Assembly (NCBI GenBank): GCA_017610205.1
Contig: JAFCCL010000001.1
Span: 81,883 to 145,882 of the forward strand
Reading direction: 5' to 3'
Source: Candidatus Iainarchaeum sp.
GTDB taxonomy: Archaea; Iainarchaeota; Iainarchaeia; Iainarchaeales; GCA-2688035
Length of the DNA stretch: 64,000 bases
The translations under genes and the position numbers were made by a program. Within the stretch, counting starts at the first letter, position 1, and each line of letters starts with the position of its first letter. The notes below the pieces were generated by a model. It saw nothing but the letters and a program-made list of their open reading frames with translations. It did not search any database and was not told the origin of the DNA. Below are positions 3,905 to 21,406 of this stretch, one piece after another.

Positions 3905-4504
3905 TTATTTAAATTTTGCTTTGGTTTTTTCCGATATAATTTTTGTCAGCCCTTCTTTTATTATAATACCTGATAACACAATAGGTAACATTCCTGTTGT
4001 CAAAATTATTTTAGTGTAAAATAAACCTTTTCCTATTTTCTTTTTTAATTTTATTTTTGCCCTGTTAATTTTAGGGTGTTTGGTTTTGTGATAATATGAC
4101 CCTTCTTTCAAAATTGTTTGAAATTCTTTTTTTGTTTTGACCGGGGTATAACAATAATCCGGGACTTTTGTATAAAATTTTTTTTCTCCAACTGGAAAAT
4201 AAGCAATTGTGACAACTTTTAAAAGTAATCCTTCTAATACTACTGTTGAAATTCCTTTGTATGCAATTGTAACATTCAAATTTGCTTCAAGCATTTGCTT
4301 ATACAGTTTTGTTGTATTATCCAAGTAAACTCTCATGCCTTTTTTTTTGATATATGTTTTAATCTGTTTTTCGTTGCTACTTTTATGCAGCCTTACTGTT
4401 ATTTCTATATTTTTATCATTTAATTCTGAAATATCTTCGAGAGTTTTTGCAATTGGTTCAAAACCAGCGCAAGTTATGATTAAAACTTTGTACATTTTTT
4501 TCAC
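3905..4504 (-). CDS. hypothetical protein (Rossmann-like N-terminus; glycan-cluster associated)
   Basis: 199-aa ORF with good coding potential and a 4-nt overlap with the downstream PHP gene. I recognise no family. Confidence 0.3.
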   Translation of the reverse strand: MKKMYKVLIITCAGFEPIAKTLEDISELNDKNIEITVRLHKSSNEKQIKTYIKKKGMRVYLDNTTKLYKQMLEANLNVTIAYKGISTVVLEGLLLKVVTIAYFPVGEKKFYTKVPDYCYTPVKTKKEFQTILKEGSYYHKTKHPKINRAKIKLKKKIGKGLFYTKIILTTGMLPIVLSGIIIKEGLTKIISEKTKAKFK

Positions 4505-5400
4505 CTTTTATTTTCAAAACTTTTTAAGTTCAATGTTAACTGCGATGATTTTTTAATTTTTTTGAGAACCGAATCTGGAATTGTAACTGAATTAATTGTT
4601 TGCCTATCGCCCCCATGAAAATCGCTTCCTCCTGATTCAAGCAGGTTTTTTTCTTTTGCAATTTTCTGGAAAAATTTTATTATTTTCGTGTTTTCTTTTT
4701 TATCAATTTTTAATCTTGGGCAAATTATATAGTAAGGGTAATATGTTTCAATTCCTTGTCCTCCTTGTTTTTTAAAAAACTCGATTAATTTGATAGCCTT
4801 TTCTTTTGGAAAAATTCCAGGATGTGCAAGAAATGTTGTGCCACCAGCTTTTTTTATTATTGTTATTGCTTCTTTAATTCCTGACTTTGATTCCCTGTCA
4901 ACATAGGCTGGTTTGCCTGCTCCTAAATATTTTTCAAAAGCTTCTCTGATTGAGTGGATTTTGTTAGGGTATTTTTTCATAAGTAGCATGGCTATATGCG
5001 GTCTTCCCAATGTTCCTTTTACTCCTGATTTTAGTTCTTCAAAACTTATGTCGAAGCCAAGTTTTTGCAATTTTTTTACAATTTTTTTCTTTTGCTCAAG
5101 CCTGTCCTGTTTTGCCTTTTTGACAAATTTGTTTAGTTCATTGTTTTTGTAATCAACAAATAATCCAACAACTTCCGCTTCTTTGAATCCGTGTTTTTCT
5201 TCGTCGCAATTTATTTCTATTCCTGGAATAATCTCGATTCCTTTGCCTTTTGCATATTTGACAGCTGGTACAATGCCACTTATTGTATCGTGGTCTGTTA
5301 TAGCTATGGCATTAAGGCCTTTTTTTAATGACAGTTTAACCAATTCTTCTGGTGAAAGCCTTCCGTCTGAAGCTGTTGTGTGCATATGCAAATCTACCAT
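4501..5400 (-). CDS. PHP-domain metal-dependent phosphoesterase (TrpH/YciV-like); candidate 3',5'-bisphosphate nucleotidase (pAp phosphatase)
   Basis: N-terminal VDLHMHTTASDGRLSPEELV matches the PHP motif (DLHxHTxxSDG). The pAp-phosphatase role is inferred from the neighbouring APS kinase and sulfotransferase and from the known PHP-family Cv1693-type enzyme. Confidence 0.75.
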   Translation of the reverse strand: MVDLHMHTTASDGRLSPEELVKLSLKKGLNAIAITDHDTISGIVPAVKYAKGKGIEIIPGIEINCDEEKHGFKEAEVVGLFVDYKNNELNKFVKKAKQDRLEQKKKIVKKLQKLGFDISFEELKSGVKGTLGRPHIAMLLMKKYPNKIHSIREAFEKYLGAGKPAYVDRESKSGIKEAITIIKKAGGTTFLAHPGIFPKEKAIKLIEFFKKQGGQGIETYYPYYIICPRLKIDKKENTKIIKFFQKIAKEKNLLESGGSDFHGGDRQTINSVTIPDSVLKKIKKSSQLTLNLKSFENKR

Positions 5401-6023
5401 GTTTTTTCATCCTCTAGAATTTTAATCAATCTAACTGAAAGAATTTCAAGCCTTTTTTTTGGAATGTAAATTTTTTCAACAGGTTTCATTTTTACAAAAC
5501 TTTTTCCTGTTTTGTCATTGAATTCCTTTTTTTTCCCAAAAGAACTGTCAACAGTATAAGGCTGTCCTATATTTCCACTGAACGGGAAAATTTTTATGTG
5601 CAAATGCTCTTTTTTCTCTTTCCAGTTTGTGCATTTTCCATAAGTTGCTATTGAAATTGCAGAATACTTTGATTTAGCTGTTAGCTTGAATTTCTTGCTT
5701 TCTTCCGCCATTACTTTTGCCATTGCATGGTTTAGTTTTGCAAAGGCAATTCCATAGTTTTTTGCAAGTTTTGAATATTTTAAAAGTTGGGCAAAGTGTG
5801 TTAAATGTGAAAATGGCATGAGTTGTAGGCTGAAATCTTTTTCTAAACCCCCTGTTTTTGGAGACAATGTTGCAAACCACCCGTCTTCAGTTCCTGTTCC
5901 AATTCTGAATACAATTATAGATCCGTAATCAGTTTTTTTTCCTGTTTCAAGAGATGCTTCTTTGCACAAATTGCAACTTTTTTTTTGTTCAATGCTTTCT
6001 CCAACAAGTTTTTCTATTGCCAT
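5394..6023 (-). CDS. HIT/GalT-superfamily-like nucleotide hydrolase/transferase, atypical (HxHxK instead of HxHxH/Q)
   Basis: An N-terminal CNLC pair resembles the GalT zinc site. EHLHIKIFPF resembles the HIT histidine-triad position with the third His replaced by Lys. Confidence 0.35.
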   Translation of the reverse strand: MAIEKLVGESIEQKKSCNLCKEASLETGKKTDYGSIIVFRIGTGTEDGWFATLSPKTGGLEKDFSLQLMPFSHLTHFAQLLKYSKLAKNYGIAFAKLNHAMAKVMAEESKKFKLTAKSKYSAISIATYGKCTNWKEKKEHLHIKIFPFSGNIGQPYTVDSSFGKKKEFNDKTGKSFVKMKPVEKIYIPKKRLEILSVRLIKILEDEKTW

Positions 6024-6024
6024 A

Positions 6025-7107
6025 TTAAATTACCTTTATGAATTCTTTTTCCCGCTGGTCTGTTAAATATGAATCAAAATAGCCTGTTACAATACGGTGA
6101 TATGGATTTCCATTTTTTGGCTTAACTTTTTCAAGAATGCCGCATGCCCTTATTTTTTCTCCTGCATATGCCAGTTGGCTGTAGTCTCTTGAGTAAAACA
6201 CAACTTTTTCAACATTGCAGTCTTTGTCTGAATCAATTAACTTTGAATCTGTTAAGGTATAACATCCTGGTCTTACAACTGAACTGTGGTGGTCTTTTAC
6301 TGTCCCTTCAACTGTTGCCAGTCCGCATGAGGAATATTTTTCTTCTCCCCATTTAAACCAAACTTCTTCTTTTTTTTCTGCTGCAAAAATTACAAAAAGC
6401 AGGTTATCAAAATATCCTTCAGATTTTTTTCTTTCAAGCATATGTTTTAGAAATTTTTTTTCATCAAAAATGTTGAACCTGTTCCTTTTTTTGTAAAATT
6501 CAAGCCATTCTTTTTCGTTTTTCCATCTTAAGGATTTATGCCTGGTTTTTTCAAGATATTTCATAAGTTTCCAGAAGTTTTTTTTCCCGTATACAACGAC
6601 ATTTATGTCTGACATATTGTAAACATATTGTCCCATTAGTGTTGAGTAAGTTATTCCAAGGTCTTTAAGTCTGATTCCGCTTTCAAGCAGGAAATTTACA
6701 AATTTGTAGACTGTTGCAAGATGGTTGTCAAGTGCATTTTCAGGCATTGACATAAGTTCAGCAATTCCGGTTCTTGGAAAATAAATTCTTTCAATATCTT
6801 TGTTCTTTGCTAAAAAGAATAATCTTTCATTGTTGTGGAATTCGCTTTGGAAAATGTGGTTTGGATATGCCTTTTTGAATTTGTCAATATACTGAACAAG
6901 GCTGTTTTTTTCTGCCCACAGGTTTAGCCTGTTCATTTTTTGACCTGAGATAAAACGGTATTGCAGTGAATCACATTCTATTTTGTCTGTTGGAATGTAT
7001 TTTGGCTTTACTAAAATGCCCTGTTCAGGGTGCTGGTTTCCATAAACCTGACAATGAAGTCCGTCTTTTGTTGTTATCATTGATGACTCGTAGAAATGCA
7101 TTTTCAA
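6025..7107 (-). CDS. Pol-beta-superfamily nucleotidyltransferase-like protein, paralog A (motif SDIN, predicted catalytically altered)
   Basis: Clearly homologous over its full length to the adjacent ORF 7104..8204. It shares the N-terminal HFYES...KPKYIP block and the C-terminal VRPG.Y...ACG.LE.VKPK...YR.V.GYFD.YL..REKEFIK block. The central ITYSTLMGQYVYNMSDINVVVYG matches the hG[GS]-x(9-13)-[DE]h[DE]h nucleotidyltransferase motif with the second carboxylate replaced by Asn. Confidence 0.5.
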   Translation of the reverse strand: MKMHFYESSMITTKDGLHCQVYGNQHPEQGILVKPKYIPTDKIECDSLQYRFISGQKMNRLNLWAEKNSLVQYIDKFKKAYPNHIFQSEFHNNERLFFLAKNKDIERIYFPRTGIAELMSMPENALDNHLATVYKFVNFLLESGIRLKDLGITYSTLMGQYVYNMSDINVVVYGKKNFWKLMKYLEKTRHKSLRWKNEKEWLEFYKKRNRFNIFDEKKFLKHMLERKKSEGYFDNLLFVIFAAEKKEEVWFKWGEEKYSSCGLATVEGTVKDHHSSVVRPGCYTLTDSKLIDSDKDCNVEKVVFYSRDYSQLAYAGEKIRACGILEKVKPKNGNPYHRIVTGYFDSYLTDQREKEFIKVI

Positions 7108-8204
7108 ATCTCCGCTTTTATGAATTCTTTTTCCCTTCTCTCACTTAGGTAAGCATCAAAATATCCTATGACTACTCTGTAATATTTTTCCTCATGCTTT
7201 GGTTTGACAAGTTCAAGTAAACCGCAGGCTGTAATTGTTTCTCCTTTCAAAGCCTGTTGTACAAAAGGAATTGAATATGTTACAATTCTTTTTATTGGAA
7301 TTGCATTGTCAATTTTGGGTGTTTTGTGGTTGCCTTCTATTAACTTTGTTTTTTCCACTTCATAAAAGCCAGGTCTTACATGGCTGTTATAATGGTCGCT
7401 TACAATTGCTTTTATTGTTGCAAGTCCTTTTGGCTCATATTCTGCTTCTTCCCATTTGAACCATGTTTCTTCCTGTTCTTCAACAGTGAAAAGAGTAAAA
7501 ACTGTTTCTCCAAATAATCCTTCATATTTTTTTCTTTTCATATGTTTTACATATTCTTTCTCTGTAAAGTGTGAAGATTCAGATGTCTTATGTTCTTTGT
7601 AATATTCTGTCCATTCCTTGTCAGTTTTCCATTTGAGCTTTTCATGCTTTGCTTTTTTCAAAAAATCAAGTATTTTCCACCCATTTTCCTTTCCATAAAT
7701 TATCATGTCAATGTCAGACTTTCCAAAGGTGTAATTTCCAAGCAATGTTGAATGCGTTATTCCCATACTTTCAGATTTTACTCCGCTTTTTTCAAGCAGT
7801 TTAACTAATTCAATTACTAGTTTTAAATATCGGTCCAAATTCTTTTCTGGAACCTGAAGCAATTCCTGCAATCCCTTTCTTCCGTCATGTACTGTTTTTA
7901 TTTTGCTTTTTGGAACTACATAAAACCAGTTTTTGTGCAAAGGGCAATCATAGATATATTCCGGAAACTTTTTTTTGAATTCGTTTACGTATCCTTCAAG
8001 TTTGTTTTTTGGTGCAAACTGGTTAAATCTTACAAGGCATTTTTCAAACAAAAACCGGTATTTTAATCCTTTTCCAGAAATTGAATCTTTTGGAATATAT
8101 TTTGGCTTTACTATTACAAACCCTTCAGGATGTTCGTTTGCATAGGATTTGCATTGAAAGCCGTCAACAGTGTCTATTAGGGTTGATTCATAAAAATGTG
8201 GCAT
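7104..8204 (-). CDS. Pol-beta-superfamily nucleotidyltransferase-like protein, paralog B (intact GKSDIDMIIYG motif)
   Basis: The central ITHSTLLGNYTFGKSDIDMIIYG fits the minimal nucleotidyltransferase fold motif. The ~140-aa N-terminal and ~150-aa beta-rich C-terminal domains are not assignable from memory. It overlaps paralog A by 4 nt. Confidence 0.5.
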   Translation of the reverse strand: MPHFYESTLIDTVDGFQCKSYANEHPEGFVIVKPKYIPKDSISGKGLKYRFLFEKCLVRFNQFAPKNKLEGYVNEFKKKFPEYIYDCPLHKNWFYVVPKSKIKTVHDGRKGLQELLQVPEKNLDRYLKLVIELVKLLEKSGVKSESMGITHSTLLGNYTFGKSDIDMIIYGKENGWKILDFLKKAKHEKLKWKTDKEWTEYYKEHKTSESSHFTEKEYVKHMKRKKYEGLFGETVFTLFTVEEQEETWFKWEEAEYEPKGLATIKAIVSDHYNSHVRPGFYEVEKTKLIEGNHKTPKIDNAIPIKRIVTYSIPFVQQALKGETITACGLLELVKPKHEEKYYRVVIGYFDAYLSERREKEFIKAEI

Positions 8205-8340
8205 TGATTCACCTTAATCCTGATTAAAAAAATGTGGTTCGCAATTGTTTTAAAACACTGTTTTTTTATCTTTGTACTACTTGAAAAATGTTGTTCTATT
8301 AAAAGGATTATGACTATAAAAATTGTAAAGTAGTGATCTA

Positions 8341-8877
8341 ATGAACGTAAAATCTGGTACAATCTGGTTTTCGGGTTTACATGGTTCTGGAAAAACAACT
8401 ATTGCAAAAGCCATTTCTGAAAAACTTAGATTTAATGGCATAAAAGTTGTTGTATTGGATGGTGATGAATTGAGAAAAGGTCTTTCGGCAGACCTTAACT
8501 ATTCTTTGGAAGAACGCAACAAGCACTTAAAAAGGGTTGCAAACATCTGCAAGATTATTTCAGAAAATGATGTTTTGAATATTGCCTGTGTTGCTTCCCC
8601 AACTGAAAAAAGTAGAACTTATGCAAAAGGAATCATTTCTAATTTTTTTGAAGTTTATATTAAATGTCCTCTACAAGTGTGTGAACAAAGAGATGTCAAA
8701 GGACATTATAAACGTGCAAGGGCTGGAGAAGCTGGTTTTGAAAACTTTTTGGGAATAAATCTTACATTTGAAGAGCCAAAATCAGCAGATTTTGTTCTTG
8801 AAACCGACAAAGAGCCTGTTAATAATTCAGTTGAAAAGCTCTTCAATAAGATTTTGGAAAAAAACTGGCTCAAGTAA
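8341..8877 (+). CDS. cysC: Adenylylsulfate (APS) kinase
   Basis: WFSGLHGSGKTTIA P-loop and overall similarity to CysC; about 178 aa. It is divergently transcribed from the nucleotidyltransferase pair. Confidence 0.85.
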   Translation: MNVKSGTIWFSGLHGSGKTTIAKAISEKLRFNGIKVVVLDGDELRKGLSADLNYSLEERNKHLKRVANICKIISENDVLNIACVASPTEKSRTYAKGIISNFFEVYIKCPLQVCEQRDVKGHYKRARAGEAGFENFLGINLTFEEPKSADFVLETDKEPVNNSVEKLFNKILEKNWLK

Positions 8878-8892
8878 TAATATTTATCTTTT

Positions 8893-9858
8893 TCAATTTT
8901 TTTCCCATTTTTCTTCATATTGTTTTCCAAGTTCTAAAATAGCAGAATAGCATTCTTTGCTTGAATTTTTCTTTATAACATCTATTTTTTCTTTCCGTTC
9001 TGTTTTTGGATGTGGAATAAAACGTTCTTTTGCCATTAATAATTTCATTTCCGGTGTTATTTTTCTTTTCAAAAAATTTGAAATCTTTTCAAGTTCTGGT
9101 TCTGGTTTTGTTGACAATAATTCATATGTAAGAAAATGTATTCTTTTGCTATAGTTGTCAGGCAGTTTTTTTAAAGATTTTATACTCATTTTGTTCAAAG
9201 TTTGCATTGATGTGATTATTCGGTCCATTTCTGACATTTTTGCATATTTATCAGTCCATTGGTATGCAAACCATGGTACTGGTCCATTTTTTCCTTTTAT
9301 TGGAATGCTAAATACTTTTGGGTCTTTGCCCCATCTTTTTCCATAACCTCTTTTAAACCAAGAGTATGTTAGATCAACAGGGTTTCTTTTGATTTTAATT
9401 ACTTTTAATTTTGGGTAAATATCAAAAAAGAGTTTTATATTTGACATGGCTTCATGCAAAACAAACGGAAAAATTTTTTCGCTTTTTTTTATTTTTTGCA
9501 CTGCTGAATCACCGTCTTCTTCAAATAATCGTTTCATATAACTATCTGCCTTTGGAGAATTAGTGATGCTGCTTTTGTCAGAAAAACGAAAATTAAGATT
9601 TCGGCCAATTACCCTGTTATAAACAAAGTTATCAATTTGGCTTCCGATAATGGCTTTTGCAGTTTCTTTTTCAATAAATCCAAGCATATTTAGTTGTGAA
9701 ATTTGTTCAGGTATACTAAAATACAGGAATTTTTCGACATTTTCAAATCCTTCGATTAGGTTTGCTAAAAACATTTTTCCTGCTCTGGTGTGCCCGTCAA
9801 GAAAAATAATATTTTCAACAAGTTTTGCTCTTTCACTTAAATGAATTTCTTTTGACAT
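8893..9858 (-). CDS. PAPS-dependent sulfotransferase (glycan/lipid sulfotransferase family)
   Basis: A 5'-PSB-like FLDGHTRAGKMF motif and a strong 3'-PB motif, KRNPVDLTYSWF (RxPxDxxxS). It is convergent with and adjacent to cysC. Confidence 0.55.
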   Translation of the reverse strand: MSKEIHLSERAKLVENIIFLDGHTRAGKMFLANLIEGFENVEKFLYFSIPEQISQLNMLGFIEKETAKAIIGSQIDNFVYNRVIGRNLNFRFSDKSSITNSPKADSYMKRLFEEDGDSAVQKIKKSEKIFPFVLHEAMSNIKLFFDIYPKLKVIKIKRNPVDLTYSWFKRGYGKRWGKDPKVFSIPIKGKNGPVPWFAYQWTDKYAKMSEMDRIITSMQTLNKMSIKSLKKLPDNYSKRIHFLTYELLSTKPEPELEKISNFLKRKITPEMKLLMAKERFIPHPKTERKEKIDVIKKNSSKECYSAILELGKQYEEKWEKN

Positions 9859-9994
9859 TTATACAAACTCCTTTTTTGATAAGAAAATGTTTTTTAGTTA
9901 TCTTATTTTTAAAATTTAATTAACTAATAAATACTTTTTACTGCAAACATATATATATATTGATTTTTGGTGCATTTTCAATTTATAAATTTCT

Positions 9995-11779
9995 CTATTT
10001 TAACAATCTGATAATTCTTTCAGTTGCTTTTCCATCCTGTTTAAATCCAAATTCATATAAAAATTTGGCTACTTTTTTTTCATGGGCTTTTTTGTTATCT
10101 TTTTCTTTCAAAAACTTTTGAATTGATTTCTTAAAGTTGTCTTTTTTTCCGGTAATTCTTTTAATTCCTTCAAAAAGAGTCTGGTCTTTAGTTTTTCTAT
10201 AGATTGCTGTTGGCTTTTTTAAAGCCATTGCTTCAAGACCAATAATTGGTGAAATGGCTATTACTGCATCTGCACAGTTAATAAGCCGATGTAAATCTGT
10301 TTTATTTAAAAGAATTGCCTTTCCTTTGCTGTTTGTTATTATTTTAGCATAATCTTTTTTGTTTTCAAATGCGTGGATTTTAATAACAAGTTTTGTATTT
10401 TTGATTTCTTTTACTGCTTCCATTGCTGCAGAAGCAATTTCAATTGGCAAAACTTTGTTTTTTTCAACTGGTTGGGTTACAAGTACCACCAACTTTTCTT
10501 TTTTGGAAACACCAATGCTTTTTCTAAAAGAATACCCGTTGGTTTTCTTGTTATACAAAACATCAAAGCGCGGAGACCCTGTAATAGAAATTTTTTTGCC
10601 AGGGACCATTTTTTTTTCCAAATTTTTTTTGTAATGAGGTCCCCAAACAGCAATTTTGTCTGCTACAACTGGTGCAAACCCCCTTATGAAATCAGGTTGG
10701 TTTGTGTTTGCGCTGAAAAGTCCGTGTTGTACAACCACGCTTTTTGCATTAATTTTTTTTGCAAGAAGTACACAAATTCTTTCAAATGGAATCCAATCTT
10801 CCCAAACAACAACTGCACACGGCTTTTTTTCCTTAAACTCTTTCAAAAGCATTTCAATAAGGAAAACAAATTCTGGCCAGTCCCTTTCACTAAAGCGTGG
10901 CATGAATTTGAAAAAAACATCTGCGAAGTTAATGTCATTAAAAACCATTTTTTTTCTAAATTTTGATTTTTCAGAAAGTTCTTTGAAAAGTCCTTTGAAA
11001 AAAATTCTTTTTTCTTTTTTTGTTTTTACAAATCTTTTTGCATTCCATGGCATTAAAATTTTTCTTACAACAAAGTTGTCAAGTGAACTAACTGAAAAAC
11101 TATTGTTTTTTTCAACTTCTTTTGAAAAGCGGTCTAGATAGCCATTACTTTTTACAAAAACAATATCTGCTCCGTTTTTTATGATTATTTTTTCTTTCAA
11201 AATTGAAAAAACTTTTTTTTGAAAATCTGCAATTTTTTTCTTGTTAAAATTTAATTTTCTTTTTTTTTCTAATGGTTGTTCTATTTCAATTTCTTTAAAT
11301 CTTGCAGATGTTGCTTTTGCAACTGCCTTTGCGCAGTCACTTGAAAAACTGTCTTTAATGCCAATAAAAGTTTTGGTTTTTTCACACTTTGCGGCATTAA
11401 TGCCTGAGTTTATTGCAAGGAAAGTTTGTCTAAAAAGGTTGTAAATTGCAAAATCTGAAACAAAACCAAGTGAAATTTCTTTCATTGTGCTTGCCTGTTC
11501 GATTTTTTTGTCAAATTTGTACCAATTTCTTGAAAAAAACAATGCCTTTTTATTAATAAAATAAAGTTCTCTATCTGAAACAAGGTCTGTTTCTTCAAAA
11601 ACTTTAATGTTTTTTGCAAAAATTCTTTGCCCTGGCCAAAATTCAAGACAAATGCATTTTATTATTACATTTGGTTTTTTTGCAGCAAATTTGAGAACTC
11701 CATCAAATTCTTTTCTGTTTGAAGCAAACGCAATAATGTTTTCCATTTTTTTTCTGTTTGAAGAAGTGATTTTTTCCAT
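9995..11779 (-). CDS. GT-B-fold polysaccharide biosynthesis protein (CDP-glycerol glycerophosphotransferase TagF / KpsC-like)
   Basis: 594 aa. The C-terminal half has a VVQHGLF...WGPHY...ITGSPRFD...KIHAFEN pattern reminiscent of the TagF/Glyphos_transf and capsule-biosynthesis families. Confidence 0.4.
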   Translation of the reverse strand: MEKITSSNRKKMENIIAFASNRKEFDGVLKFAAKKPNVIIKCICLEFWPGQRIFAKNIKVFEETDLVSDRELYFINKKALFFSRNWYKFDKKIEQASTMKEISLGFVSDFAIYNLFRQTFLAINSGINAAKCEKTKTFIGIKDSFSSDCAKAVAKATSARFKEIEIEQPLEKKRKLNFNKKKIADFQKKVFSILKEKIIIKNGADIVFVKSNGYLDRFSKEVEKNNSFSVSSLDNFVVRKILMPWNAKRFVKTKKEKRIFFKGLFKELSEKSKFRKKMVFNDINFADVFFKFMPRFSERDWPEFVFLIEMLLKEFKEKKPCAVVVWEDWIPFERICVLLAKKINAKSVVVQHGLFSANTNQPDFIRGFAPVVADKIAVWGPHYKKNLEKKMVPGKKISITGSPRFDVLYNKKTNGYSFRKSIGVSKKEKLVVLVTQPVEKNKVLPIEIASAAMEAVKEIKNTKLVIKIHAFENKKDYAKIITNSKGKAILLNKTDLHRLINCADAVIAISPIIGLEAMALKKPTAIYRKTKDQTLFEGIKRITGKKDNFKKSIQKFLKEKDNKKAHEKKVAKFLYEFGFKQDGKATERIIRLLK

Positions 11780-12877
11780 TCAATCACCTAAAATTGAGGC
11801 ATATGCTGCAGCAGTTTGCTTTGCAGCCGCCTTCCAAAGGAATTTTTTTTCAATGTGCTTTCGCAATCCTGACTTGCTTCCGCTTACAAGAATTTTTTCA
11901 ATTTTTTCCCTGATGTCACTAATTCTTCCTGGATTAACGTAAAGGGCGTAGTTTTCAAAATATTCTTTGGTACAGCCTTCCTGTGTAATTATAATGTCTG
12001 CTCCTGCAAGTCCTGCTTCAAGAGCTGCAAGGCCAGGTGTTTCATACCAGCTTGGCAGTGCAAAAACCCTGCATGCAGCGTAGGCAGATGAAAGCAACTC
12101 ATCGTTATGTAGCATGGGTTTTAGAAATACAACATCTTTTCCTGCCACTTCAAGACATTTTTTGTAATATTCACTGCTGTTTGATGTAGGTCCTCCAATA
12201 ATTACAAGTTTTTCGTTTACTCCTTTCATTGCTTTAATCAGTGAAAGCACATTTTTTCTTTCCTCTATTCTTCCTACATACAGTACAAAATTCTTTAATC
12301 CAAATCTTTTTTCAAAAACTTCTGGTTTTGCTTTTGCAAACCTTGCATCAACACCGTTTCTTACAATGTGAATTTTTCTTTCATCTGCGTGAAAAATTTT
12401 TTTCAAAACATTTGCTTCTGCTTTGCTATTTGGTAGCAGAACATCTGCTGTTCTTACAATTTGTTTTGCTTTTGAAATTCCAATTCGTTTTGCAAGCTCT
12501 GCTGCAACAGCTTTTCCCTTTCCTTTCACTCCCTTGTTCCACAATATTGCGCTTTTAAGCGAAGGCCAGTAAATTGTACTTACTGCAATTGGAATTCCTG
12601 CTTTTTCTGCCTGCATTACAAATGGGTAATTGTCTCTGTGAATGTTAAAATTGTGAAACAAATCAAATTCGGAAAAATCAACGGCGTAATCTTGTTCTTC
12701 AAGAATTTTTACTTCAAAGCCAAGATTTTCCAGCTCTTTTTTTGTTTCAAGTAATTGTATTTCTCCTCCGCCAGGGCTTTTGAAAGAGCCTGGTGAAGTG
12801 TTGAACAAAATTTTCTTTGCAGCTTTTGAATTTTTCTTCATTGCTTTTGAATCTTTCGTCCTTTTAGAATCTTTCAT
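11780..12877 (-). CDS. Glycosyltransferase family 4 (GT-B, RfaB-like) with lysine-rich N-terminal extension
   Basis: GT4 C-terminal EX7E-type region and 365 aa. The N-terminus is MKDSKRTKDSKAMKKNSKAAKK. Confidence 0.7.
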   Translation of the reverse strand: MKDSKRTKDSKAMKKNSKAAKKILFNTSPGSFKSPGGGEIQLLETKKELENLGFEVKILEEQDYAVDFSEFDLFHNFNIHRDNYPFVMQAEKAGIPIAVSTIYWPSLKSAILWNKGVKGKGKAVAAELAKRIGISKAKQIVRTADVLLPNSKAEANVLKKIFHADERKIHIVRNGVDARFAKAKPEVFEKRFGLKNFVLYVGRIEERKNVLSLIKAMKGVNEKLVIIGGPTSNSSEYYKKCLEVAGKDVVFLKPMLHNDELLSSAYAACRVFALPSWYETPGLAALEAGLAGADIIITQEGCTKEYFENYALYVNPGRISDIREKIEKILVSGSKSGLRKHIEKKFLWKAAAKQTAAAYASILGD

Positions 12878-14943
12878 TACGTTCGCCCCATTGCCTTTTT
12901 TGCCTTGTGCTTTAGTCCTCTTTTCAATGAATCAATTCTTTTGTCTTTTTCTGATTTAAATATTCTAATTTCAAGCCCTGATTTTAGCACTGCTCCAAAC
13001 TTGGCTTTGTATGCAGGGCTTCCTCCAAGCAAATCAAATTCCTTAATGCCCCTGCTGCAGCAATATTCTATTGCCTTAATGAACAAAACATTTCCAATGC
13101 TCTGTTTTGGATTGTAATTTTTTCCAAATCCTATATTGAGTACACTAAATTTCTTTCCTTGTTCTATTGCCAAAAGAATTCCTGCAAGCTTGTTGTCAAG
13201 TTTTAGGTTTAGGAAACGCAATTTTCCCTCTGCTGCTGCATTAAAGCAGGATTGTTTGTAGATTGCCCGAAACTCTTCCTCTTCCAACACCGTTTTTTCG
13301 CCTTTTCTTTCCATATTTTCAAAATGCAGTCTTAGGAAATCCTTCCATTGCTTTTCAAATTCTTTTGCGTTTGAAACAATCTCCACTTTAATTTTAAATT
13401 CTCTTCCAAGCCTGTTTAAATCGTTTCTTTGATTTTTTCGCAGTTTTTTCTTAAGTCCTGCCCAATATTTTTCCATTGTATTAGGAAGTTCTACTACTGC
13501 GCAGGCATCGCCTTGTTCTAATGCAATTTCAATTCCTTCTTTTTTGCATTTTTCCTGCAGTGCTTTCATAAACAAGGGCTTGTCAACCAAATGTCTGAAG
13601 AAAATACTTTTCCAATCAGGGTTTGCAAAAACAAATTCAATAATTTTTTCAGCAACCTTTTTTTCTTTTCCTTTTTCTGACAAAAAGTCAAGGTGGTATG
13701 AAAAGTCCTGTGCCAACAGCCCAAGTTTTTTGTTTTCAACTGAAAAGAATGCAAGTCCCAATGGTTTTCCCTTGCTTCCTGCAATTGCAACCAATGCATT
13801 GCCTTTCTTTTCCTCTGCCATTATCCAGGGCATTAGCCAGGAGGGTGATAGGAAAAAATTGTCTGACTTTTTGGCAAGCGAATTCCATTCCCTTTCAATG
13901 TCTTTAACTTTTCCGCCTGCTTCAAAACTTTCAGCGCAGCCTGCCTTTGTTCCTGTCGCTTTTGTACTTTTTGCTTTTGCACTGCCTGCCATTGCAGCAT
14001 AGCCTTTGCTTTGGTAAAGCTTTCTTTTTGAAACAATGTCTTTTGTGTCCTTTAAATTAAGCCAGTAGGCTTCAATCAGCCATGGAAAGCGCATGCTGAA
14101 AGCATTTTTTCCAAGCCTTAGGCTTTCCCAAAATGCCGCCTTTGCAAGCCTTCTTTTTGGAAAATGCAAAAGCATATACCTTATTCTGTTTCTGTTCAAT
14201 GCCAAAAACTTCCATTTGCTTGGTTGTGCATTTGTTGCAGCTGATTCATAGTGAATTATTTTGCTTTTTGGAGTAAACATTATTTTAAATCCGGCTTTTC
14301 TTGCCCTTGCACAGTAGTCCGAATCCTCAAAATATATTGGAAAAAAGCCTTTGTCAAGTACTCCAATTGCATCAATTACTCTCCTTTTGACAAAAAATGC
14401 CCCTCCTGAAACCATTTCTGCTTCCCCTTCCTCTTTTTTGAAGCTGTCTCTTGAAATTCCCTTATTATCAACAAAGCCTGGTCCAAAAATCGTGTTTTTG
14501 TGCGCGGCGTTTGGAAACCATGGTCCAAGAATGCCAACATCCTGCCTTTTATCTGCAAGTTCAACCAATGGCTTAAGCCAGTTCTTTGTAACCTTTGTGT
14601 CATTGTTTAGCAGAAGAATAAATTCTCCTTCAGAAACTTTTATTCCTGCATTGTTGCCTCCGCCAAAGCCAAGGTTTTTGCCACTAAGCACGAGCTTTTG
14701 CACCTTTCCATTTTTTTTCATTTTTTTGAGCAGTTCAATGCTTCCGTCAGTGCTTCCATTGTCTGAAACAACAATTTCAAATTTTTTGTATGAGGTGTTT
14801 TTCAGAATTGAATCAATGCAGTCTTTTAGAAAGTGCTTTCCATTCCAATTTAGAATAATAATCGAAACAAGTCCCTCTTTCACTGGCTTCATTTTTGAAA
14901 CAATCCCTTTTTTCTCAGGCTTCATAGGCTCCATTTGCTTCAT
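12877..14943 (-). CDS. Bifunctional fusion: N-terminal GT2 glycosyltransferase + C-terminal FemAB/CelD (BioF2-like, Acetyltransf_6) acyl/aminoacyl-transferase-like domain
   Basis: The N-terminus (SIIILNWNGKHFLKDCIDSIL...VVSDNGSTDGS) is a GT2 signature with a DxD. The C-terminal ~350 aa (EWNSLAKKSDNFFLSPSWLMPW ... LGGSPAYKAKFG) resembles CelD/FemAB-like GNAT-related domains. Confidence 0.55.
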   Translation of the reverse strand: MKQMEPMKPEKKGIVSKMKPVKEGLVSIIILNWNGKHFLKDCIDSILKNTSYKKFEIVVSDNGSTDGSIELLKKMKKNGKVQKLVLSGKNLGFGGGNNAGIKVSEGEFILLLNNDTKVTKNWLKPLVELADKRQDVGILGPWFPNAAHKNTIFGPGFVDNKGISRDSFKKEEGEAEMVSGGAFFVKRRVIDAIGVLDKGFFPIYFEDSDYCARARKAGFKIMFTPKSKIIHYESAATNAQPSKWKFLALNRNRIRYMLLHFPKRRLAKAAFWESLRLGKNAFSMRFPWLIEAYWLNLKDTKDIVSKRKLYQSKGYAAMAGSAKAKSTKATGTKAGCAESFEAGGKVKDIEREWNSLAKKSDNFFLSPSWLMPWIMAEEKKGNALVAIAGSKGKPLGLAFFSVENKKLGLLAQDFSYHLDFLSEKGKEKKVAEKIIEFVFANPDWKSIFFRHLVDKPLFMKALQEKCKKEGIEIALEQGDACAVVELPNTMEKYWAGLKKKLRKNQRNDLNRLGREFKIKVEIVSNAKEFEKQWKDFLRLHFENMERKGEKTVLEEEEFRAIYKQSCFNAAAEGKLRFLNLKLDNKLAGILLAIEQGKKFSVLNIGFGKNYNPKQSIGNVLFIKAIEYCCSRGIKEFDLLGGSPAYKAKFGAVLKSGLEIRIFKSEKDKRIDSLKRGLKHKAKKAMGRT

Positions 14944-15794
14944 TTATGTAGCCTCCTTGAAATCTTTTTCTTTTCAACGCGCATTAACTGTCCTTTGTAA
15001 AATGATTTCATTTTCCTGTTTTTGCTTTTTTTGGCTTCTACAAAAACATTGTGTTCATTCCACGTTGTTTTTCTTTGCTTAAACTTTTTCTTTTTCCAAA
15101 AGTTAGCATACTCTGTCAGGTTTGTAAACCAAACGTCGTCAAGTTCCTTAACTTTTTCAAAAATCTTTTCAAGCACTTTTGGATGCGCTCCAATTCTTCC
15201 TGTGGGGTGCCCGTACAAAAATATCGGAATCTGTTTTTCGTAAAGCAGTTTAATTATTTTGTCAAAATATTCAATTGCCTCTTTTTCATTATAGCCTGAT
15301 TCAAAAAGGCTTCCAAGGCAGATTGGGTGAATTGGAACCTGAAGAACCTTTGACTTTTTTCCGTTACCCTTGGGGTAAAATGGAAATATGTTTTTTCCTT
15401 TTCTGAATTCACTGCTGTATTCATATCCTGTTTTTTCCAGTGCACTTCCAAGTTCTTTGTTCCAAAACCCAAACGGTGCAGCAAAGCCGCTGCATTTAAC
15501 ACCCATTTCCTGCAGCAATTTATCTCCCTTCATTATGTTCTCAAAATTTTTCACACTGTCCTTAAACGTTTCGTGAAGAAAAGCGTGGTTTTGCACATCC
15601 TGTGTTTTTGCAATTCTTTTTATTTCGCGTTCGTGAAATTGGCCCGTTTCCATATTCACAAACCAGGTCATATCGATTTCGTGCTTTTCTGCAGCCTTCA
15701 AAGTTTTTTCAACGTGCTTTGGGTGAAAAAAATCAAGGTCTATTCTGAATGCAAAAATTCCCTTGTGGCCGTTGAATTCTTTTTTCTTTTCCAT
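14940..15794 (-). CDS. Polysaccharide deacetylase-like (CE4-like) protein
   Basis: FRIDLD (a TFDDG-like position) followed by HAFLH (HxxxH) resembles CE4 motifs 1 and 2. This is a weak assignment. Confidence 0.4.
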   Translation of the reverse strand: MEKKKEFNGHKGIFAFRIDLDFFHPKHVEKTLKAAEKHEIDMTWFVNMETGQFHEREIKRIAKTQDVQNHAFLHETFKDSVKNFENIMKGDKLLQEMGVKCSGFAAPFGFWNKELGSALEKTGYEYSSEFRKGKNIFPFYPKGNGKKSKVLQVPIHPICLGSLFESGYNEKEAIEYFDKIIKLLYEKQIPIFLYGHPTGRIGAHPKVLEKIFEKVKELDDVWFTNLTEYANFWKKKKFKQRKTTWNEHNVFVEAKKSKNRKMKSFYKGQLMRVEKKKISRRLHK

Positions 15795-15796: not shown

Positions 15797-16894
15797 TTAT
15801 TCCCTCAAAATTATTTCAACAATCTTCTGGCTTGTCTTTCCGTCTCCAAAAGGGCATGGCTCTTTTTCAAGTCTTTTCTTCAATTCAGGGTAATTTTCCA
15901 TTGCCTTTTTGCTTTCTTCAACTATTTTTTCTTTGCAGTAGCCTGTCAGTCTTCCAAACTTTTCTAATATTTCTGGTCGTTCTGTATTGTCTCTTAGAAT
16001 AACAATCCATTTTTTGTAAACGCTTGCCTCTTCCTGAATGCCTCCGCTGTCCGACAGCAAAAACATTGCGTTGCTTGCAAGCTTTAGAAAATCAAAATAG
16101 CCAGCTGGCTCAATAAACTGCAGGTTTGGAATTGCTTTTGCTTTTTTAAGCAAGTTAAATGCCGTAAGGTTCTTCAAAGTTCTTGGATGGGCAGGGAACA
16201 CGACCTTTATGTCAATTTCTGCGATTGCTGAAAGTAATTCTTCCAAATTTTCTTTTTTGTCAACATATTCCTGTCTGTGGGCTGTAAGAACTGCATATTT
16301 TTCCGGCGTTAACCCAAGTGTTTCAAGAATTTTTGAGTCTTTTGCCTTTTCAAGGTTTTTTTGCACTGCTTCAACTATTGTGTTGCCTGTTAGGAAAATC
16401 TTGGCTTCCTCTATTTTATCATCCTGCAAATGTTTTACTGCAATATCTGTTGGGGCAAAAGCATAATCTGCAAGTTTGTCTGCTTCAATCCTGTTTTTTT
16501 CTTCCGGCATTCTTTCATCAAAGCTTCTTAGCCCTGCTTCAACATGGGCAAATTTTGTGCCTATATCTTTTGCTGCAAGGGCTGCTGCAAGAACACTGTT
16601 TGTGTCCCCTTCTGCAATCACAATTTCTGGTTTTTCTTTTAAAAAAAACTCACCCAGCTTTTTTTCCATTAGTGTAACCTGTTTTTCATTGCCTCCGCCG
16701 CTTATTCCTAAATTTATGTCAATTTTTGGCAGTTCAAGTTCTTCCATAAAAATCTGGCAAAGGTTGTAATCATAATGCTGTCCTGTGAAAGCAATTACTG
16801 TTTTTGCTTCATGATGTTCTTTTAAAAGTCTTATGAGCTCTGCGAGTTTTATTATTTCTGGTCTTGTTCCAAGGACAATTGCAATTTTTTTCAA
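15797..16894 (-). CDS. wecB: UDP-N-acetylglucosamine 2-epimerase (non-hydrolysing)
   Basis: N-terminal KIAIVLGTRPEIIKLAELI and full-length WecB/MnaA-like similarity over 365 aa. Confidence 0.85.
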   Translation of the reverse strand: MKKIAIVLGTRPEIIKLAELIRLLKEHHEAKTVIAFTGQHYDYNLCQIFMEELELPKIDINLGISGGGNEKQVTLMEKKLGEFFLKEKPEIVIAEGDTNSVLAAALAAKDIGTKFAHVEAGLRSFDERMPEEKNRIEADKLADYAFAPTDIAVKHLQDDKIEEAKIFLTGNTIVEAVQKNLEKAKDSKILETLGLTPEKYAVLTAHRQEYVDKKENLEELLSAIAEIDIKVVFPAHPRTLKNLTAFNLLKKAKAIPNLQFIEPAGYFDFLKLASNAMFLLSDSGGIQEEASVYKKWIVILRDNTERPEILEKFGRLTGYCKEKIVEESKKAMENYPELKKRLEKEPCPFGDGKTSQKIVEIILRE

Positions 16895-18336
16895 GCAACA
16901 ACCCCCTTTTCAAAAATTTCTTCCAAAATTCGTCCATCAAGTCCTTTTGGTTGTTTTACTTTCATAAGTTTCATTATTGTTGGAGCCAAATCAAATATGC
17001 TTGCCTTGCCTGCATCAAATCCTTTTTTTATTCCGTTGCCTTTTACTATAAAAACTCCGTCTTTGTGGTGTGTCGCAATCCATCTGCTTCCAAGTTCAAA
17101 TATTTCCTTGCCTCCAAGCGGGCTGCAGACTTCGCACCATGGTTTTGCAAGTGTTATTAGGTCAGGTGCTTTGTCTAAATAAGGTCCGTTGTAAATTTCT
17201 TCTTTTGAAAAAATTTTTTCAATTACTGTGTCGCCTGTTCCAGGAAGTCTTACTTCCAAAAGCTTTTCTTTAATCTCTTTTGCAATATGCTTTCGTTCCA
17301 CTTCTGAAAGATTTGGATTTATATAAAAGAGATTGCTTGCGTGGCTGATTACTTTACTTTTTTTCCAGTCAAACAAATATCCTTTGGCTTCGCCTCCGAT
17401 TAAACCATGGCTTGACTTGATTTTCTTAGTTACCTTTGCAGGAACAAGTTTTTTTACAATTTTTTCAAGACCGAGTTTTTTAAGAAGTCCAACTGCTGTT
17501 TCTTTGTTAATTCCCAATTTAAACAATGTGTTTGTCATACCCTCTTTTGTTTTTTGATAACCTTCTTTTTGCAGCCATATATTTGCCAAAAACATTGCCT
17601 TTAGTCTTGCAAAGCCATGGTCTGACATTATAATAAAAGTACAGTCCCTGCCTGCCTTCTGCATTGTTTTTCCAATGCATTCGTCAATTTTTTTGAAAAT
17701 CTTTTTGGAAAAGTCGTCATTCCAGTAAAAATGCATAATGTAATCTGTGAAAACAATTGTAAGATGCAAAAAGTCTGCTTTGTCAAGGTTTGCGTCCAAA
17801 ATGTCAAACCTTGTTTCAATCAATGAAAAAATCTCATCTTTTAGTTCGTCTGTAGGCAAATCAAGCCTGCCTTCAACGTCTGGTTTGTAGTTAAATTTTT
17901 CTTTGAGTTCTTTTTGAAGTTTTTTTGGATATGTGTAATTGTCATAATTTGGCGGTTCAATGCTTCCAATCATAAAACCGTTGATTTTTTTTGGAGGATA
18001 TGTTGTTGGCATGTCAATTACACCAACCTTTTTTCCTGCTGCTCCCAAATAATCCCAAATTTCTTTGCTTTTGTAATTTGTTGAATCAACCGGTGTAATT
18101 TTTCCGCTCTCAAAATCAATATCTGTTCTTGAGAACACCCCAAGCTTGGCTGCATTCTTTCCCGTGCTGTAATATTTCCAGGCAGGGCAGGTAAGTGGTG
18201 GTGTTTGTGTTTCCAAAATGCCCGCGCTTCCTTCTTTAACCATTTTTGCAAGGTTTGGAAGTTCATTTCTTTCAACCCACGGTTTTAGAATTTTCCAGGT
18301 AACCCCATCCAATCCAATTACTACAACTTTTGCCAT
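16891..18336 (-). CDS. Alkaline-phosphatase-superfamily type I phosphodiesterase / nucleotide pyrophosphatase (NPP family)
   Basis: VVIGLDGVTW ... TPPLTCPAWKYYSTG matches the NPP catalytic-Thr region. It is not a sulfatase: the CxPxR motif is absent. Confidence 0.65.
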   Translation of the reverse strand: MAKVVVIGLDGVTWKILKPWVERNELPNLAKMVKEGSAGILETQTPPLTCPAWKYYSTGKNAAKLGVFSRTDIDFESGKITPVDSTNYKSKEIWDYLGAAGKKVGVIDMPTTYPPKKINGFMIGSIEPPNYDNYTYPKKLQKELKEKFNYKPDVEGRLDLPTDELKDEIFSLIETRFDILDANLDKADFLHLTIVFTDYIMHFYWNDDFSKKIFKKIDECIGKTMQKAGRDCTFIIMSDHGFARLKAMFLANIWLQKEGYQKTKEGMTNTLFKLGINKETAVGLLKKLGLEKIVKKLVPAKVTKKIKSSHGLIGGEAKGYLFDWKKSKVISHASNLFYINPNLSEVERKHIAKEIKEKLLEVRLPGTGDTVIEKIFSKEEIYNGPYLDKAPDLITLAKPWCEVCSPLGGKEIFELGSRWIATHHKDGVFIVKGNGIKKGFDAGKASIFDLAPTIMKLMKVKQPKGLDGRILEEIFEKGVVA

Positions 18337-20470: not shown

Positions 20471-21406
20471 TTAGGTATCTGCAAACAGGTGATATACTCC
20501 GTGGTGGAATTTGTCTTCCGCAATCATTTCGTCAATAGTTCTTTCAAATCTTCCCTGTTCTGAAAGAACATTTTTTGAAAGGATTTTTTTAGAAAATTTT
20601 AGTATATCCATTGATTCCCAAACCACCAGGCATTTGCGAACGCCGTGTTTTTTCAAAAGCCTGTAAAACTCCTTTGTTTTTTCCACTCCCAAAAAATCAC
20701 AATGTACTTCAATAAACAGCTGAAGATGTCCTGTTTCCTTAAAAGTTTTTTTCATTCCTTTCAGTATCTCAAATTCGTATCCTTCAACATCCATTCTTAC
20801 AATATCTGGAAGCCGTTTGTCTTTGAGAAAAGAATCAAGGGTAGTAACTTCAACAGGAACTGTTTCCCCTGTTTGATCCAAATCAATATTTTTGCAAAAG
20901 GTTGACAGGTTTGATTGCTTTGAAACAAAAATATCCTGCTTTCCGTTCTTGTCTCCAACAGCTTTGTTAAAAACCTCAATGTTTTTGTAATTATTTGCAT
21001 CAATGTTTTTCTTCAGCAACTCAACATTTCCAATAATTGGTTCTATTGCGTAAACTTTTCCTTTTGGGCCAACAGCCTTTGCTTCCATTAGCACATAATA
21101 GCCAATGTTTGCTCCAATGTCGGCAATAACCTGTCCTGATTTCAGCCTTTTCTGGAATTCAACTGTTGCATGAGCTTCTCGTATTCCATTAAGGTATAAT
21201 TCTGATGAAAGCCCTTTGTCGTCTCTTATGTTAAGAAATATTTTGCTTCCCTGCACGTCTTTTAAGACAAAATCCTCTCTATGTCTCATTTTTGCAATTG
21301 CCATTTTTATTCCTGTAACACCTCGGTCAGCTTTTATTAGCATAATTTTTATTCCTCGTTGAATAAAAGTTGCAGGGCTGTCTTCTAAAAGTCTACTCCA
21401 ATTCAA
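20471..21406 (-). CDS. FkbM-family SAM-dependent methyltransferase
   Basis: VIADIGANIGYYV...VYAIEP motif typical of FkbM (Methyltransf_21). Confidence 0.7.
   Translation of the reverse strand: MNWSRLLEDSPATFIQRGIKIMLIKADRGVTGIKMAIAKMRHREDFVLKDVQGSKIFLNIRDDKGLSSELYLNGIREAHATVEFQKRLKSGQVIADIGANIGYYVLMEAKAVGPKGKVYAIEPIIGNVELLKKNIDANNYKNIEVFNKAVGDKNGKQDIFVSKQSNLSTFCKNIDLDQTGETVPVEVTTLDSFLKDKRLPDIVRMDVEGYEFEILKGMKKTFKETGHLQLFIEVHCDFLGVEKTKEFYRLLKKHGVRKCLVVWESMDILKFSKKILSKNVLSEQGRFERTIDEMIAEDKFHHGVYHLFADT

Follow-up and report, generated by a model that had tools for sequence, protein, structure and literature searches.

Proteins of the CelD/BcsL/HfsK type are widespread in surface-polysaccharide clusters, among them those for cellulose, holdfast and unipolar polysaccharide, and their mutants have clear phenotypes; the reaction that they carry out has never been defined. 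HfsK, which we take to be a member of Pfam family PF13480 (InterPro 'BioF2-like acetyltransferase domain'), is described as a GNAT protein whose nearest structures are the Fem proteins. In the Caulobacter holdfast it is proposed to acylate amines unmasked by HfsH (PMC5362036); a paper of 2021 still described its role as unclear (PMC8449245). Here we describe a gene that joins a domain of this type to a GT2 glycosyltransferase in a single polypeptide. The gene occupies positions 12877 to 14943 on the minus strand of a 64,000-nucleotide stretch of a Candidatus Iainarchaeum genome (contig JAFCCL010000001.1; the whole stretch is called the window below), inside a glycosylation island of about 45 kb. 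We tentatively propose that its product is a bifunctional enzyme that adds an N-acetylhexosamine (HexNAc) to a glycan and, after de-N-acetylation of that sugar by a neighbouring CE4-type enzyme, re-N-acylates it, with aminoacyl-tRNA as the preferred donor.

Results

A GT2 glycosyltransferase and a CelD/BcsL-type domain in one reading frame

The gene and its parts are as follows:

12877..14943, minus strand: whole fusion open reading frame (ORF), 688 residues, stop codon included in the coordinates (ATG at 14943, stop at 12877-12879)
14107..14868, minus strand: GT2 (GT-A type) catalytic domain, residues 26-279, from Pfam, motifs and alignment with solved GT2 structures
13993..14106, minus strand: helical C-terminal extension of the GT2 module, residues 280-317, from alignment and model
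13894..13992, minus strand: variable low-complexity linker MAGSAKAKSTKATGTKAGCAESFEAGGKVKDIE, residues 318-350 (about 33 residues), from gapped, unconserved alignment columns
12880..13893, minus strand: CelD/BcsL-type tandem-GNAT domain, residues 351-688, from PF13480, profile and model
13402..13458, minus strand: basic helix between the GNAT lobes GLKKKLRKNQRNDLNRLGR, residues 496-514, helix 160-176 of the domain model
13006..13011, minus strand: aromatic-lysine pair Tyr645-Lys646 in GGSPAYKAKFG, from the family alignment

Read on the minus strand, the frame is uninterrupted, with no internal stop and no frameshift. A second ATG at Met18 (MKPVKEG, nucleotide 14892) coincides with the start of two orthologues and may be the real start. 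An earlier note on this DNA, made from the sequence alone, had described the gene as a fusion of a GT2 enzyme with a CelD/FemAB-like domain. The fusion is borne out by the single ORF, by the Pfam domains found in its two halves (GT2 and Acetyltransf_6) and by orthologues that are 55-87% identical, and every motif that the note had cited is located in the ORF. The GT2 half carries DNGSTDGS (residues 61-68, nucleotides 14740-14763), NNDT (residues 113-116) and EDSDYCAR with its D-x-D (residues 206-213), and the C-terminal half carries EW..L......FLSPSWLMPW (residues 352-373, nucleotides 13825-13890) and LGGSPAYKAKFG (residues 639-650, nucleotides 12994-13029).

The N-terminal half is a GT2 enzyme, as the earlier note had it. 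It matches PF00535 (Glycos_transf_2) at residues 27-193 over profile positions 1-167 of 168 (E 9e-26, 91.2 bits against a cut-off of 23.3) and PF13641 (Glyco_tranf_2_3) at residues 26-253 (E 1e-16, 61.8 bits against a cut-off of 27). The three GT2 motifs are kept in all six orthologues of the alignment, with only exchanges of Glu and Asp. In GT2 enzymes the acidic motifs bind the nucleotide sugar and the metal, and the ED.D motif includes the catalytic base. Solved GT2 structures (GalT1, 5hea; chondroitin synthase, 2z86; TarS, 5tze) align with the first ~115 residues only, and all GT2 matches in NCBIfam fall below threshold, so that no specific GT2 subfamily can be named.

A full-length AlphaFold model built from 8 sequences reached a mean predicted local distance difference test score (pLDDT) of 70 and a predicted template modelling score (pTM) of 0.50, too weak for domain packing to be read from it. 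Its GT2 part has a beta/alpha N-terminal half with pLDDT 70-88 and a second half below 50. Helices at residues 263-309 fall in the region of the C-terminal extension, which is kept in the orthologues and corresponds to the end of the separate GT2 gene in a split version of the system (see below). Residues 306-344 have pLDDT below 50 and are thus predicted to be disordered; the linker varies among orthologues in both length and sequence. We found no membrane-spanning hydrophobic segment in the protein (the Kyte-Doolittle mean over a 19-residue window reaches at most 1.2), and the product would most likely be a soluble or peripheral bifunctional enzyme of lipid-linked glycan assembly.

Fused and split versions of the protein

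A search of ~5.8 billion clustered proteins returned, beside the window protein (P0001, whose contig is 236 kb long), five further full-length fusions (P0002-P0006) of 650-686 residues, each with both Pfam domains, 55-87% identity and 97-98% query coverage; the remaining matches in this search cover the GT2 third only. The six fusions align colinearly, with a variable low-complexity stretch between two conserved halves. The joint is not an assembly artefact, because five independently assembled orthologues are colinear and differ in linker length. A pair of mis-joined genes, the possibility that the earlier note had set against its own claim, is ruled out by these concordant assemblies and by the absence of any stop or frameshift.

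One more fusion, P0121, brings the further fused copies to six, all of them from metagenomes or uncultured archaea. This protein had looked like a free-standing C-terminal domain, which is ruled out: the appearance was an artefact of a ten-N scaffold gap at the junction (locus L007, 300-440), into which the GT2 frame reads and past which the fusion is restored. The gap had led the gene caller to report a 'stand-alone' CelD/BcsL protein, which calls for caution when architectures are counted in metagenomes. P0122, which at first also seemed to be a free-standing C-terminal domain, is a 242-residue fragment on a 3-kb contig.

In a scan of one genome per prokaryotic species, two archaeal loci had a GT2 and CelD pair. 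The first, L003, belongs to an uncultured archaeon and lies on the same contig as the fused locus L001. The second, L004, comes from Candidatus Iainarchaeum archaeon ARS1307 (phylum Candidatus Iainarchaeota, a DPANN lineage); here the modules are separate genes of 337 and 338 residues with a TGA/ATG overlap (ATGA), in the same neighbourhood. In L004 no linker is present. The fusion is therefore restricted to one clade, in which two genes that were coupled beforehand became one, and the split-versus-fused pattern indicates that the two activities belong together. With six more fused copies and one split locus, the search for the same architecture in other genomes shows a fusion that is genuine but rare.

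The C-terminal domain is a PF13480 member with a Fem-type fold

The C-terminal domain matches PF13480 (Acetyltransf_6) at residues 499-646 over profile positions 1-142 of 143 (E 5.9e-19, 69.1 bits against a cut-off of 22). It is no fragment: its ~340 residues correspond to an entire free-standing protein of ~376 residues. A profile built on it aligns with bacterial proteins named 'CelD/BcsL family acetyltransferase' over nearly their full length at 21-25% identity, covering ~85-95% of free-standing relatives (profile positions 3-345 of 348, proteins of 350-400 residues). Searched exhaustively with a hidden Markov model, 1.84 billion cluster representatives yielded 31,157 relatives at E <=0.001, of which 17,962 reach E <=1e-10. 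Among the best 150 of the 31,157, the majority are free-standing at 350-400 residues; ten long ones that we checked in this set either consist of tandem copies or have DegT sugar aminotransferases, a classical GNAT or REC-GGDEF as fusion partners, and none of the ten is a GT2 fusion. With inspection confined to these best 150, independent GT2 fusions may well exist among the other representatives.

A model of the domain alone shows two GNAT-like lobes (pLDDT 95, pTM 0.91) in the tandem-GNAT fold with the Fem-type arrangement of lobes. Structure comparison found its nearest folds to be FemX, FemA, MprF and Sbb17, all of them tRNA-dependent. Tandem GNATs that depend on coenzyme A (CoA) rank after a gap (ORF14 13.2, MAB_4324 13.0, MshD 12.0), the tRNA-dependent group leading by 3-7 Z units, and Foldseek gives the same ranking (template modelling score 0.55-0.61 for the tRNA-dependent group against 0.36-0.44 for the CoA-dependent one). 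The fold evidence thus places the CelD/BcsL/HfsK family beside the tRNA-dependent Fem and MprF enzymes and not beside the CoA-dependent tandem GNATs.

Identity in the structural alignments with Fem-type enzymes is 8-15%. The domain is a PF13480 member by sequence and is related to the Fem enzymes at the level of fold only; membership of FemAB or MprF is ruled out by unmet sequence thresholds. Of the earlier note's reading as CelD/FemAB-like, the CelD part stands through PF13480 and the Fem part through the FemX-like tandem-GNAT fold, so that the lack of such a fold, which the note had named as a ground for rejection, is not borne out, while sequence membership of FemAB or FemAB_like was not found. 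All 73 relatives in our family alignment match PF13480, and 25 of the 73 match FemAB_like at E <=1 (best 1.8e-10). One relative that matches Pfam FemAB, P0225, had no sequence match in the PDB.

Conserved residues of a possible Fem-like site

The fusion retains the residues that are conserved throughout the family: Arg502, His540, Asp637, Gly641, Tyr645 and Lys646. In the alignment of 73 relatives, in which one bacterial subclade predominates, Arg502 (R163 of the domain) is invariant (73/73) and an aromatic-lysine pair is present at Tyr645-Lys646 in 71 (YK in 68, FK in 2, HK in 1). Arg502 lies in the helix between the lobes, which has a net charge of +5 to +8 in the fusion clade and a median of +8 in the bacterial relatives. 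High-GC bacterial relatives are equally basic (median pI 10.0, helix net charge +8).

FemX has a positively charged helix that has been proposed to hold the tRNA acceptor stem, and of its pair Phe304-Lys305 the lysine is catalytic and the phenylalanine 'conserved in all Fem transferases' (PMC12945691, PMC9723616). DhpH-C has the corresponding pair Phe328-Lys329 (PMC9723616, PMC12945691). Tyr645-Lys646 lies near the C-terminus, as does the FemX pair, and is a candidate counterpart of Phe304-Lys305.

A conserved block with a deacetylase-like gene directly upstream

The fusion gene lies in a block with the following neighbours:

16891-18336, minus strand: type I phosphodiesterase/nucleotide pyrophosphatase-family protein, 481 residues, upstream of the epimerase
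15797..16894, minus strand: UDP-N-acetylglucosamine (UDP-GlcNAc) 2-epimerase, 365 residues (PF02350, E 8e-93), a conserved neighbour
14940..15794, minus strand: CE4 (NodB-type) polysaccharide-deacetylase-like gene, 284 residues (PF01522, E 1e-9, 38.7 bits against a cut-off of 23.1)
11780..12877, minus strand: GT4 glycosyltransferase, 365 residues, from Pfam and synteny
9995..11779, minus strand: 594-residue protein with an Epimerase_2/Glyphos_transf/Capsule_synth-like C-terminal half (GT-B type transferase), a member of the conserved block

In the window the stop of the deacetylase-like gene overlaps the start of the fusion (ATGA), and the stop of the fusion overlaps the start of the GT4 gene (TAATG). 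The order UDP-GlcNAc 2-epimerase, CE4-like gene, fusion, GT4 and a ~590-residue Epimerase_2/capsule-synthase-like protein is kept in all fused orthologues with enough flanking sequence (L001/L003, L002, L008/L009 and L010), and the split locus L004 has the order deacetylase, GT2, CelD-like gene, epimerase, GT4. Directly upstream of the GT2 module there is thus a CE4 gene both in the window and in each of the five other distinct loci that have flanking sequence (L001/L003, L002, L004, L008/L009, L010). The CE4-like proteins keep the metal-binding residues Asp19, His70 and His74 (HxxxH), all invariant, together with the invariant Pro107 and the GHP histidine.

The epimerase is likely the source of a donor of the N-acetylmannosamine (ManNAc) type. 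The phosphodiesterase-family gene, conserved in the window, L002, L004 and L008, could encode a phospho-sugar or phosphoethanolamine-type transferase.

Discussion

Proposed function of the fusion

This work establishes the identities of the domains, the Fem/MprF-like fold, the conservation of fused and split forms, and the synteny with the deacetylase, the epimerase and the GT4 gene. In our proposal the GT2 module would take a sugar from a nucleotide sugar and add it to a growing dolichol-linked oligosaccharide; this sugar is probably a HexNAc, for which the adjacent epimerase suggests ManNAc. The CE4-like protein, a cytoplasmic product of the translationally coupled upstream gene, would then remove the N-acetyl group and expose a free amine, and the tethered Fem/CelD-type module would re-acylate that amine; with aminoacyl-tRNA as donor, the product would be an amino sugar bearing an N-aminoacyl group. 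FemX Lys305 and Phe304 would have their counterparts in Lys646 and Tyr645, and the basic helix with Arg502 would hold the acceptor stem. The finished glycan would most likely be an N-glycan, later transferred by the oligosaccharyltransferase AglB that is encoded in the same island. It is the conserved CE4 gene directly upstream that gives this deacetylate and re-acylate model its logic; the earlier note had remarked neither on this gene nor on the archaeal N-glycosylation setting. What we infer is the sugar, the order of the steps, the donor, and that deacetylase and C-terminal domain share a target; addition followed by (amino)acylation is a plausible order.

Aminoacyl-tRNA is our first, tentative choice of donor, acyl-CoA is a serious second candidate, a catalytically inactive domain takes a very small share, and what remains goes to other or unforeseen donors. 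We favour aminoacyl-tRNA because the whole top tier of structural neighbours uses it, because the aromatic-lysine pair is present in nearly all relatives, as in the Fem transferases, and because the basic helix with its invariant Arg502 recalls the tRNA-binding helix of FemX. The gene content adds a further reason: in those ORFs of the island that match a Pfam family (five do not) we found no acyl-CoA ligase, no carrier protein and no enzyme that would make an unusual acyl-CoA. N-acetyl-aminoacyl amino sugars are a known product type of bacterial O-antigens, and the relatives fused to a classical GNAT would fit a scheme in which the sugar is first aminoacylated and the amino acid then N-acetylated. 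The narrower claim, that the C-terminal module uses aminoacyl-tRNA to aminoacylate a de-acetylated sugar amine in a dolichol-linked precursor of an archaeal N-glycan, we put forward with still more reserve.

Several points weigh against the proposal. The sugar specificity of the GT2 module cannot be read from its sequence. In the CE4-like proteins the Arg that is usual in the RxPY motif is missing, and the one in the window may not be a deacetylase at all or may act on another sugar. The window protein has no match to FemAB (PF02388) and reaches only E 0.29 with FemAB_like (PF04339; 10.7 bits against a cut-off of 27), and a PDB sequence search returned nothing significant either with the C-terminal half (phmmer) or with the 73-sequence profile. 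Fold similarity is no proof of a shared donor, the equivalence of Tyr645-Lys646 to the FemX pair is a candidate one, and the residue counts come from an alignment weighted towards one bacterial subclade. The basic surface could equally bind an anionic membrane lipid or dolichol pyrophosphate. The names given to the family by Pfam and NCBI are those of an acetyltransferase, and in the literature that we searched we found no paper demonstrating the donor of any PF13480 member. For the Brucella effector BspF, a predicted carrier of PF13480, there is a reported link to crotonylation, and this would imply that the donor is an acyl-CoA; a QSIGNV loop of the C-terminal domain loosely resembles a CoA pyrophosphate loop.

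These last points bear on the strongest alternative, which keeps the architecture and the pathway and has acyl-CoA as the donor of a non-acetyl acyl group, or of an acetyl group to a different amine, for example one made by a DegT enzyme. On this view the C-terminal module is a conventional CoA-dependent N-acyltransferase tied to a GT2 enzyme. We regard it as a real possibility, somewhat less probable than our proposal. It would have to accommodate a fold whose nearest neighbours are all tRNA-dependent and an island in which the Pfam-matched ORFs include no maker of an unusual acyl-CoA. The loop that recalls a CoA site ends in Val and not in Gly or Ala, and a classical GNAT, in the form of a cytidylyltransferase fusion, is already present in the island. 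An acetyl donor is further disfavoured because re-acetylating an amine that has just been deacetylated would be futile.

A second alternative concerns the order of steps only and is compatible with either donor: the deacetylase and the C-terminal domain would convert a UDP-linked HexNAc to UDP-hexosamine and then to its N-acyl form, and the GT2 module would transfer it afterwards. The adjacent epimerase also uses UDP-sugars, and among the relatives are fusions to DegT aminotransferases, enzymes that act on nucleotide sugars. Weissella FemX, moreover, works on a soluble UDP-linked precursor (PMC12945691). Such an order would amount to donor channelling rather than product editing, since the finished sugar is transferred last. 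We consider it unlikely, given that CE4 enzymes act on oligo- or polysaccharides or on lipid-linked glycans and are not known to act on nucleotide sugars, and that HfsH and HfsK are thought to act on membrane lipid-linked precursors.

It is highly improbable for the C-terminal domain to be a non-catalytic scaffold, a membrane- or substrate-binding module or a regulator of the GT2 enzyme, as might be supposed from HfsK being an effector of cyclic di-GMP (c-di-GMP) whose chemistry was never demonstrated and from the relative fused to REC-GGDEF, since Arg502, Lys646, Tyr645, Asp637 and His540 are all kept by the proteins of the fusion clade as well as by their split counterpart, as would be expected of an active enzyme, and, to our knowledge, c-di-GMP signalling is not established in archaea.

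We know of no earlier case of Fem-type aminoacylation in archaeal glycosylation. If our proposal is right, a non-peptidoglycan glycan would be a new class of acceptor for Fem-type tRNA-dependent transferases, whose kind, the tRNA-dependent GNATs, has peptides, proteins, lipids, natural products and DNA as targets in a 2026 overview (PMC13219725). It would also give the biochemically uncharacterised CelD/BcsL/HfsK family, with its 31,157 representatives, a testable function, to aminoacylate the amino sugar. The N-(aminoacyl) and N-(N-acetyl-aminoacyl) amino sugars of bacterial surface polysaccharides could owe their origin to the same activity, and if the donor is aminoacyl-tRNA, translation and the decoration of glycans would be linked in archaea and probably also in many bacteria. 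The glycosyltransferase fusion, the split form and the upstream CE4 gene are three lines that together yield a concrete biochemical hypothesis, in which a HexNAc is added, deacetylated and then re-acylated.

The glycosylation island and its archaeal host

The island runs from about nucleotide 400 to 46,600, with nearly all genes in the same orientation and devoted to glycan synthesis. Further features of the window are:

388-1542, minus strand: cytidylyltransferase (CTP_transf_3) fused to a classical GNAT (Acetyltransf_3), adjoining DegT and epimerase/dehydratase genes
8341-8877, plus strand: adenosine 5'-phosphosulfate (APS) kinase, one of the few plus-strand genes of the island
8893-9858, minus strand: sulfotransferase, adjoining the APS kinase
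21403-22872, 26152-27672, 27759-29312, 32981-34075 and 34072-35484: five radical-SAM enzymes, four of them B12-binding
23606-24550, minus strand: 314-residue protein with LAGLIDADG_3 and HTH_50 matches, mid-island, between a nucleotidyltransferase gene and the next block
42386-42886, minus strand: Alg13-like (Glyco_tran_28_C), from Pfam
42886-43347, minus strand: Alg14-like, from Pfam
43348-44385, minus strand: Alg7/AglH-like GlcNAc-1-P transferase, from Pfam
44472-46634, minus strand: oligosaccharyltransferase AglB (STT3 and AglB core), from Pfam
48832-48949, minus strand: solitary 5S rRNA gene
48996-49502, minus strand: free-standing archaeal threonyl-tRNA synthetase (ThrRS) editing domain, adjoining the 5S rRNA gene

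The host is an archaeon: the window encodes AglB, ribosomal protein L10e, the TATA-binding protein (TBP) and the archaea-specific ThrRS editing domain. The Alg13-, Alg14- and Alg7-like genes beside AglB look like a set for beginning N-glycosylation with a chitobiose core, as eukaryotes do; the archaeon that carries them is probably of the DPANN type. No Mur or Mra (peptidoglycan) genes were seen in the window, and with an archaeal host and an N-glycosylation island the peptidoglycan-precursor acceptor of the Fem enzymes is missing from this setting.

The island also holds six further GT2 and three GT4 enzymes, several NAD-dependent sugar epimerases/dehydratases, a DegT aminotransferase and methyltransferases. 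The APS kinase and sulfotransferase suggest glycan sulfation dependent on 3'-phosphoadenosine 5'-phosphosulfate. The cytidylyltransferase-GNAT fusion looks like part of a nonulosonic acid pathway of the pseudaminic- or legionaminic-acid type, and two orthologous loci, L002 and L008, have NeuB. Five radical-SAM enzymes within one glycosylation island, alongside an FkbM methyltransferase and a CmcI-like methyltransferase, are an unusually heavy investment and would probably serve C-methylation or other radical chemistry on sugars. The G+C content is 29-33% in positions 1-12000 and 34-41% in 12001-64000, with the step just downstream of the fusion gene; this may be the sign of a portion of the island that is variable or was acquired. 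Taken as a whole, the locus shows a probably DPANN-type archaeon giving ~45 kb to an elaborate glycan, likely sulfated, methylated and bearing nonulosonic acid, which bears on the host interaction of such cells.

Outside the island, no 16S or 23S rRNA gene accompanies the 5S rRNA gene, and no tRNA gene was found anywhere in the 64 kb. The ORF of the ThrRS editing domain overlaps the predicted TBP ORF (49420-50025), and probably the start codon of one of the two is mis-set.

Comparison with known systems

In the literature that we searched there was no paper on a GT2::Acetyltransf_6 fusion or on a Fem/CelD-type enzyme in archaeal glycosylation, in agreement with the earlier note, whose author knew of no such fusion as a characterised enzyme. 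Neither a deacetylase step nor an acetyltransferase step is mentioned in a 2024 review of N-glycosylation in archaea.

The same trio of genes is met again around free-standing relatives in bacteria, which speaks for the link with the deacetylase. A Vicinamibacteria genome has the order Acetyltransf_6, DegT, Acetyltransf_6, Polysacc_deac_1, and an exopolysaccharide cluster of Actinoplanes brings together a deacetylase, DegT and a protein with a BioF2-like domain (PMC13390465). On the bacterial contig ERZ25039538 contig_11713 (L012, 5901-13019), a PIGA-like GT4 and a CE4 gene lie within ~4 kb of a CelD-like gene. The latter is divergent to an MprF-type flippase domain (LPG_synthase_TM), with a radical-SAM enzyme and a GT87 nearby; this set resembles a hybrid of GlcNAc addition and de-acetylation of the glycosylphosphatidylinositol type with glycolipid modification and flipping of the MprF type.

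The Fem ligases FemX, FemA, FemB and MurM (PF02388) differ from the fusion in showing no significant sequence match and in their acceptor, a peptide side chain as against the sugar amine expected here. MprF (DUF2156) and the amide synthases of the Sbb17/Sba18/Orf11 type likewise have no sequence match, and they serve lipid or antibiotic pathways, whereas the context in the window is glycan assembly. The window protein has neither a DUF2156 match nor the N-terminal LPG_synthase_TM flippase domain of MprF.

Addition, deacetylation and re-acylation follow the same logic as has been proposed for HfsH and HfsK of the Caulobacter holdfast. De-N-acetylation of an added GlcNAc, followed by re-N-acylation, is also known from mycothiol synthesis (MshA-MshB-MshC-MshD) and from LpxC-LpxD. 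In all three systems the activities reside in separate proteins, none of them fused to a glycosyltransferase; the deacetylase families of MshB and LpxC are unrelated to the CE4 protein of the window, and MshD uses acetyl-CoA and LpxD acyl-acyl carrier protein.

The closest likeness is to the CelD/BcsL/HfsK/UppA-type proteins, with which the C-terminal domain shares an alignment over its whole length, a PF13480 match above the Pfam cut-off and a setting in surface-glycan clusters beside glycosyltransferases and a CE4 deacetylase. The bacterial members differ in their 21-25% identity, in not being archaeal and in having no GT2 fusion, and their setting is a Wzx/Wzy or cellulose system where that of the fusion is an AglB-type N-glycosylation island. 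What is new in the gene is a fusion that is rare, confined to one lineage and set in a host and a pathway that are unusual; both halves come from known families, and the fusion is not a new kind of enzyme.

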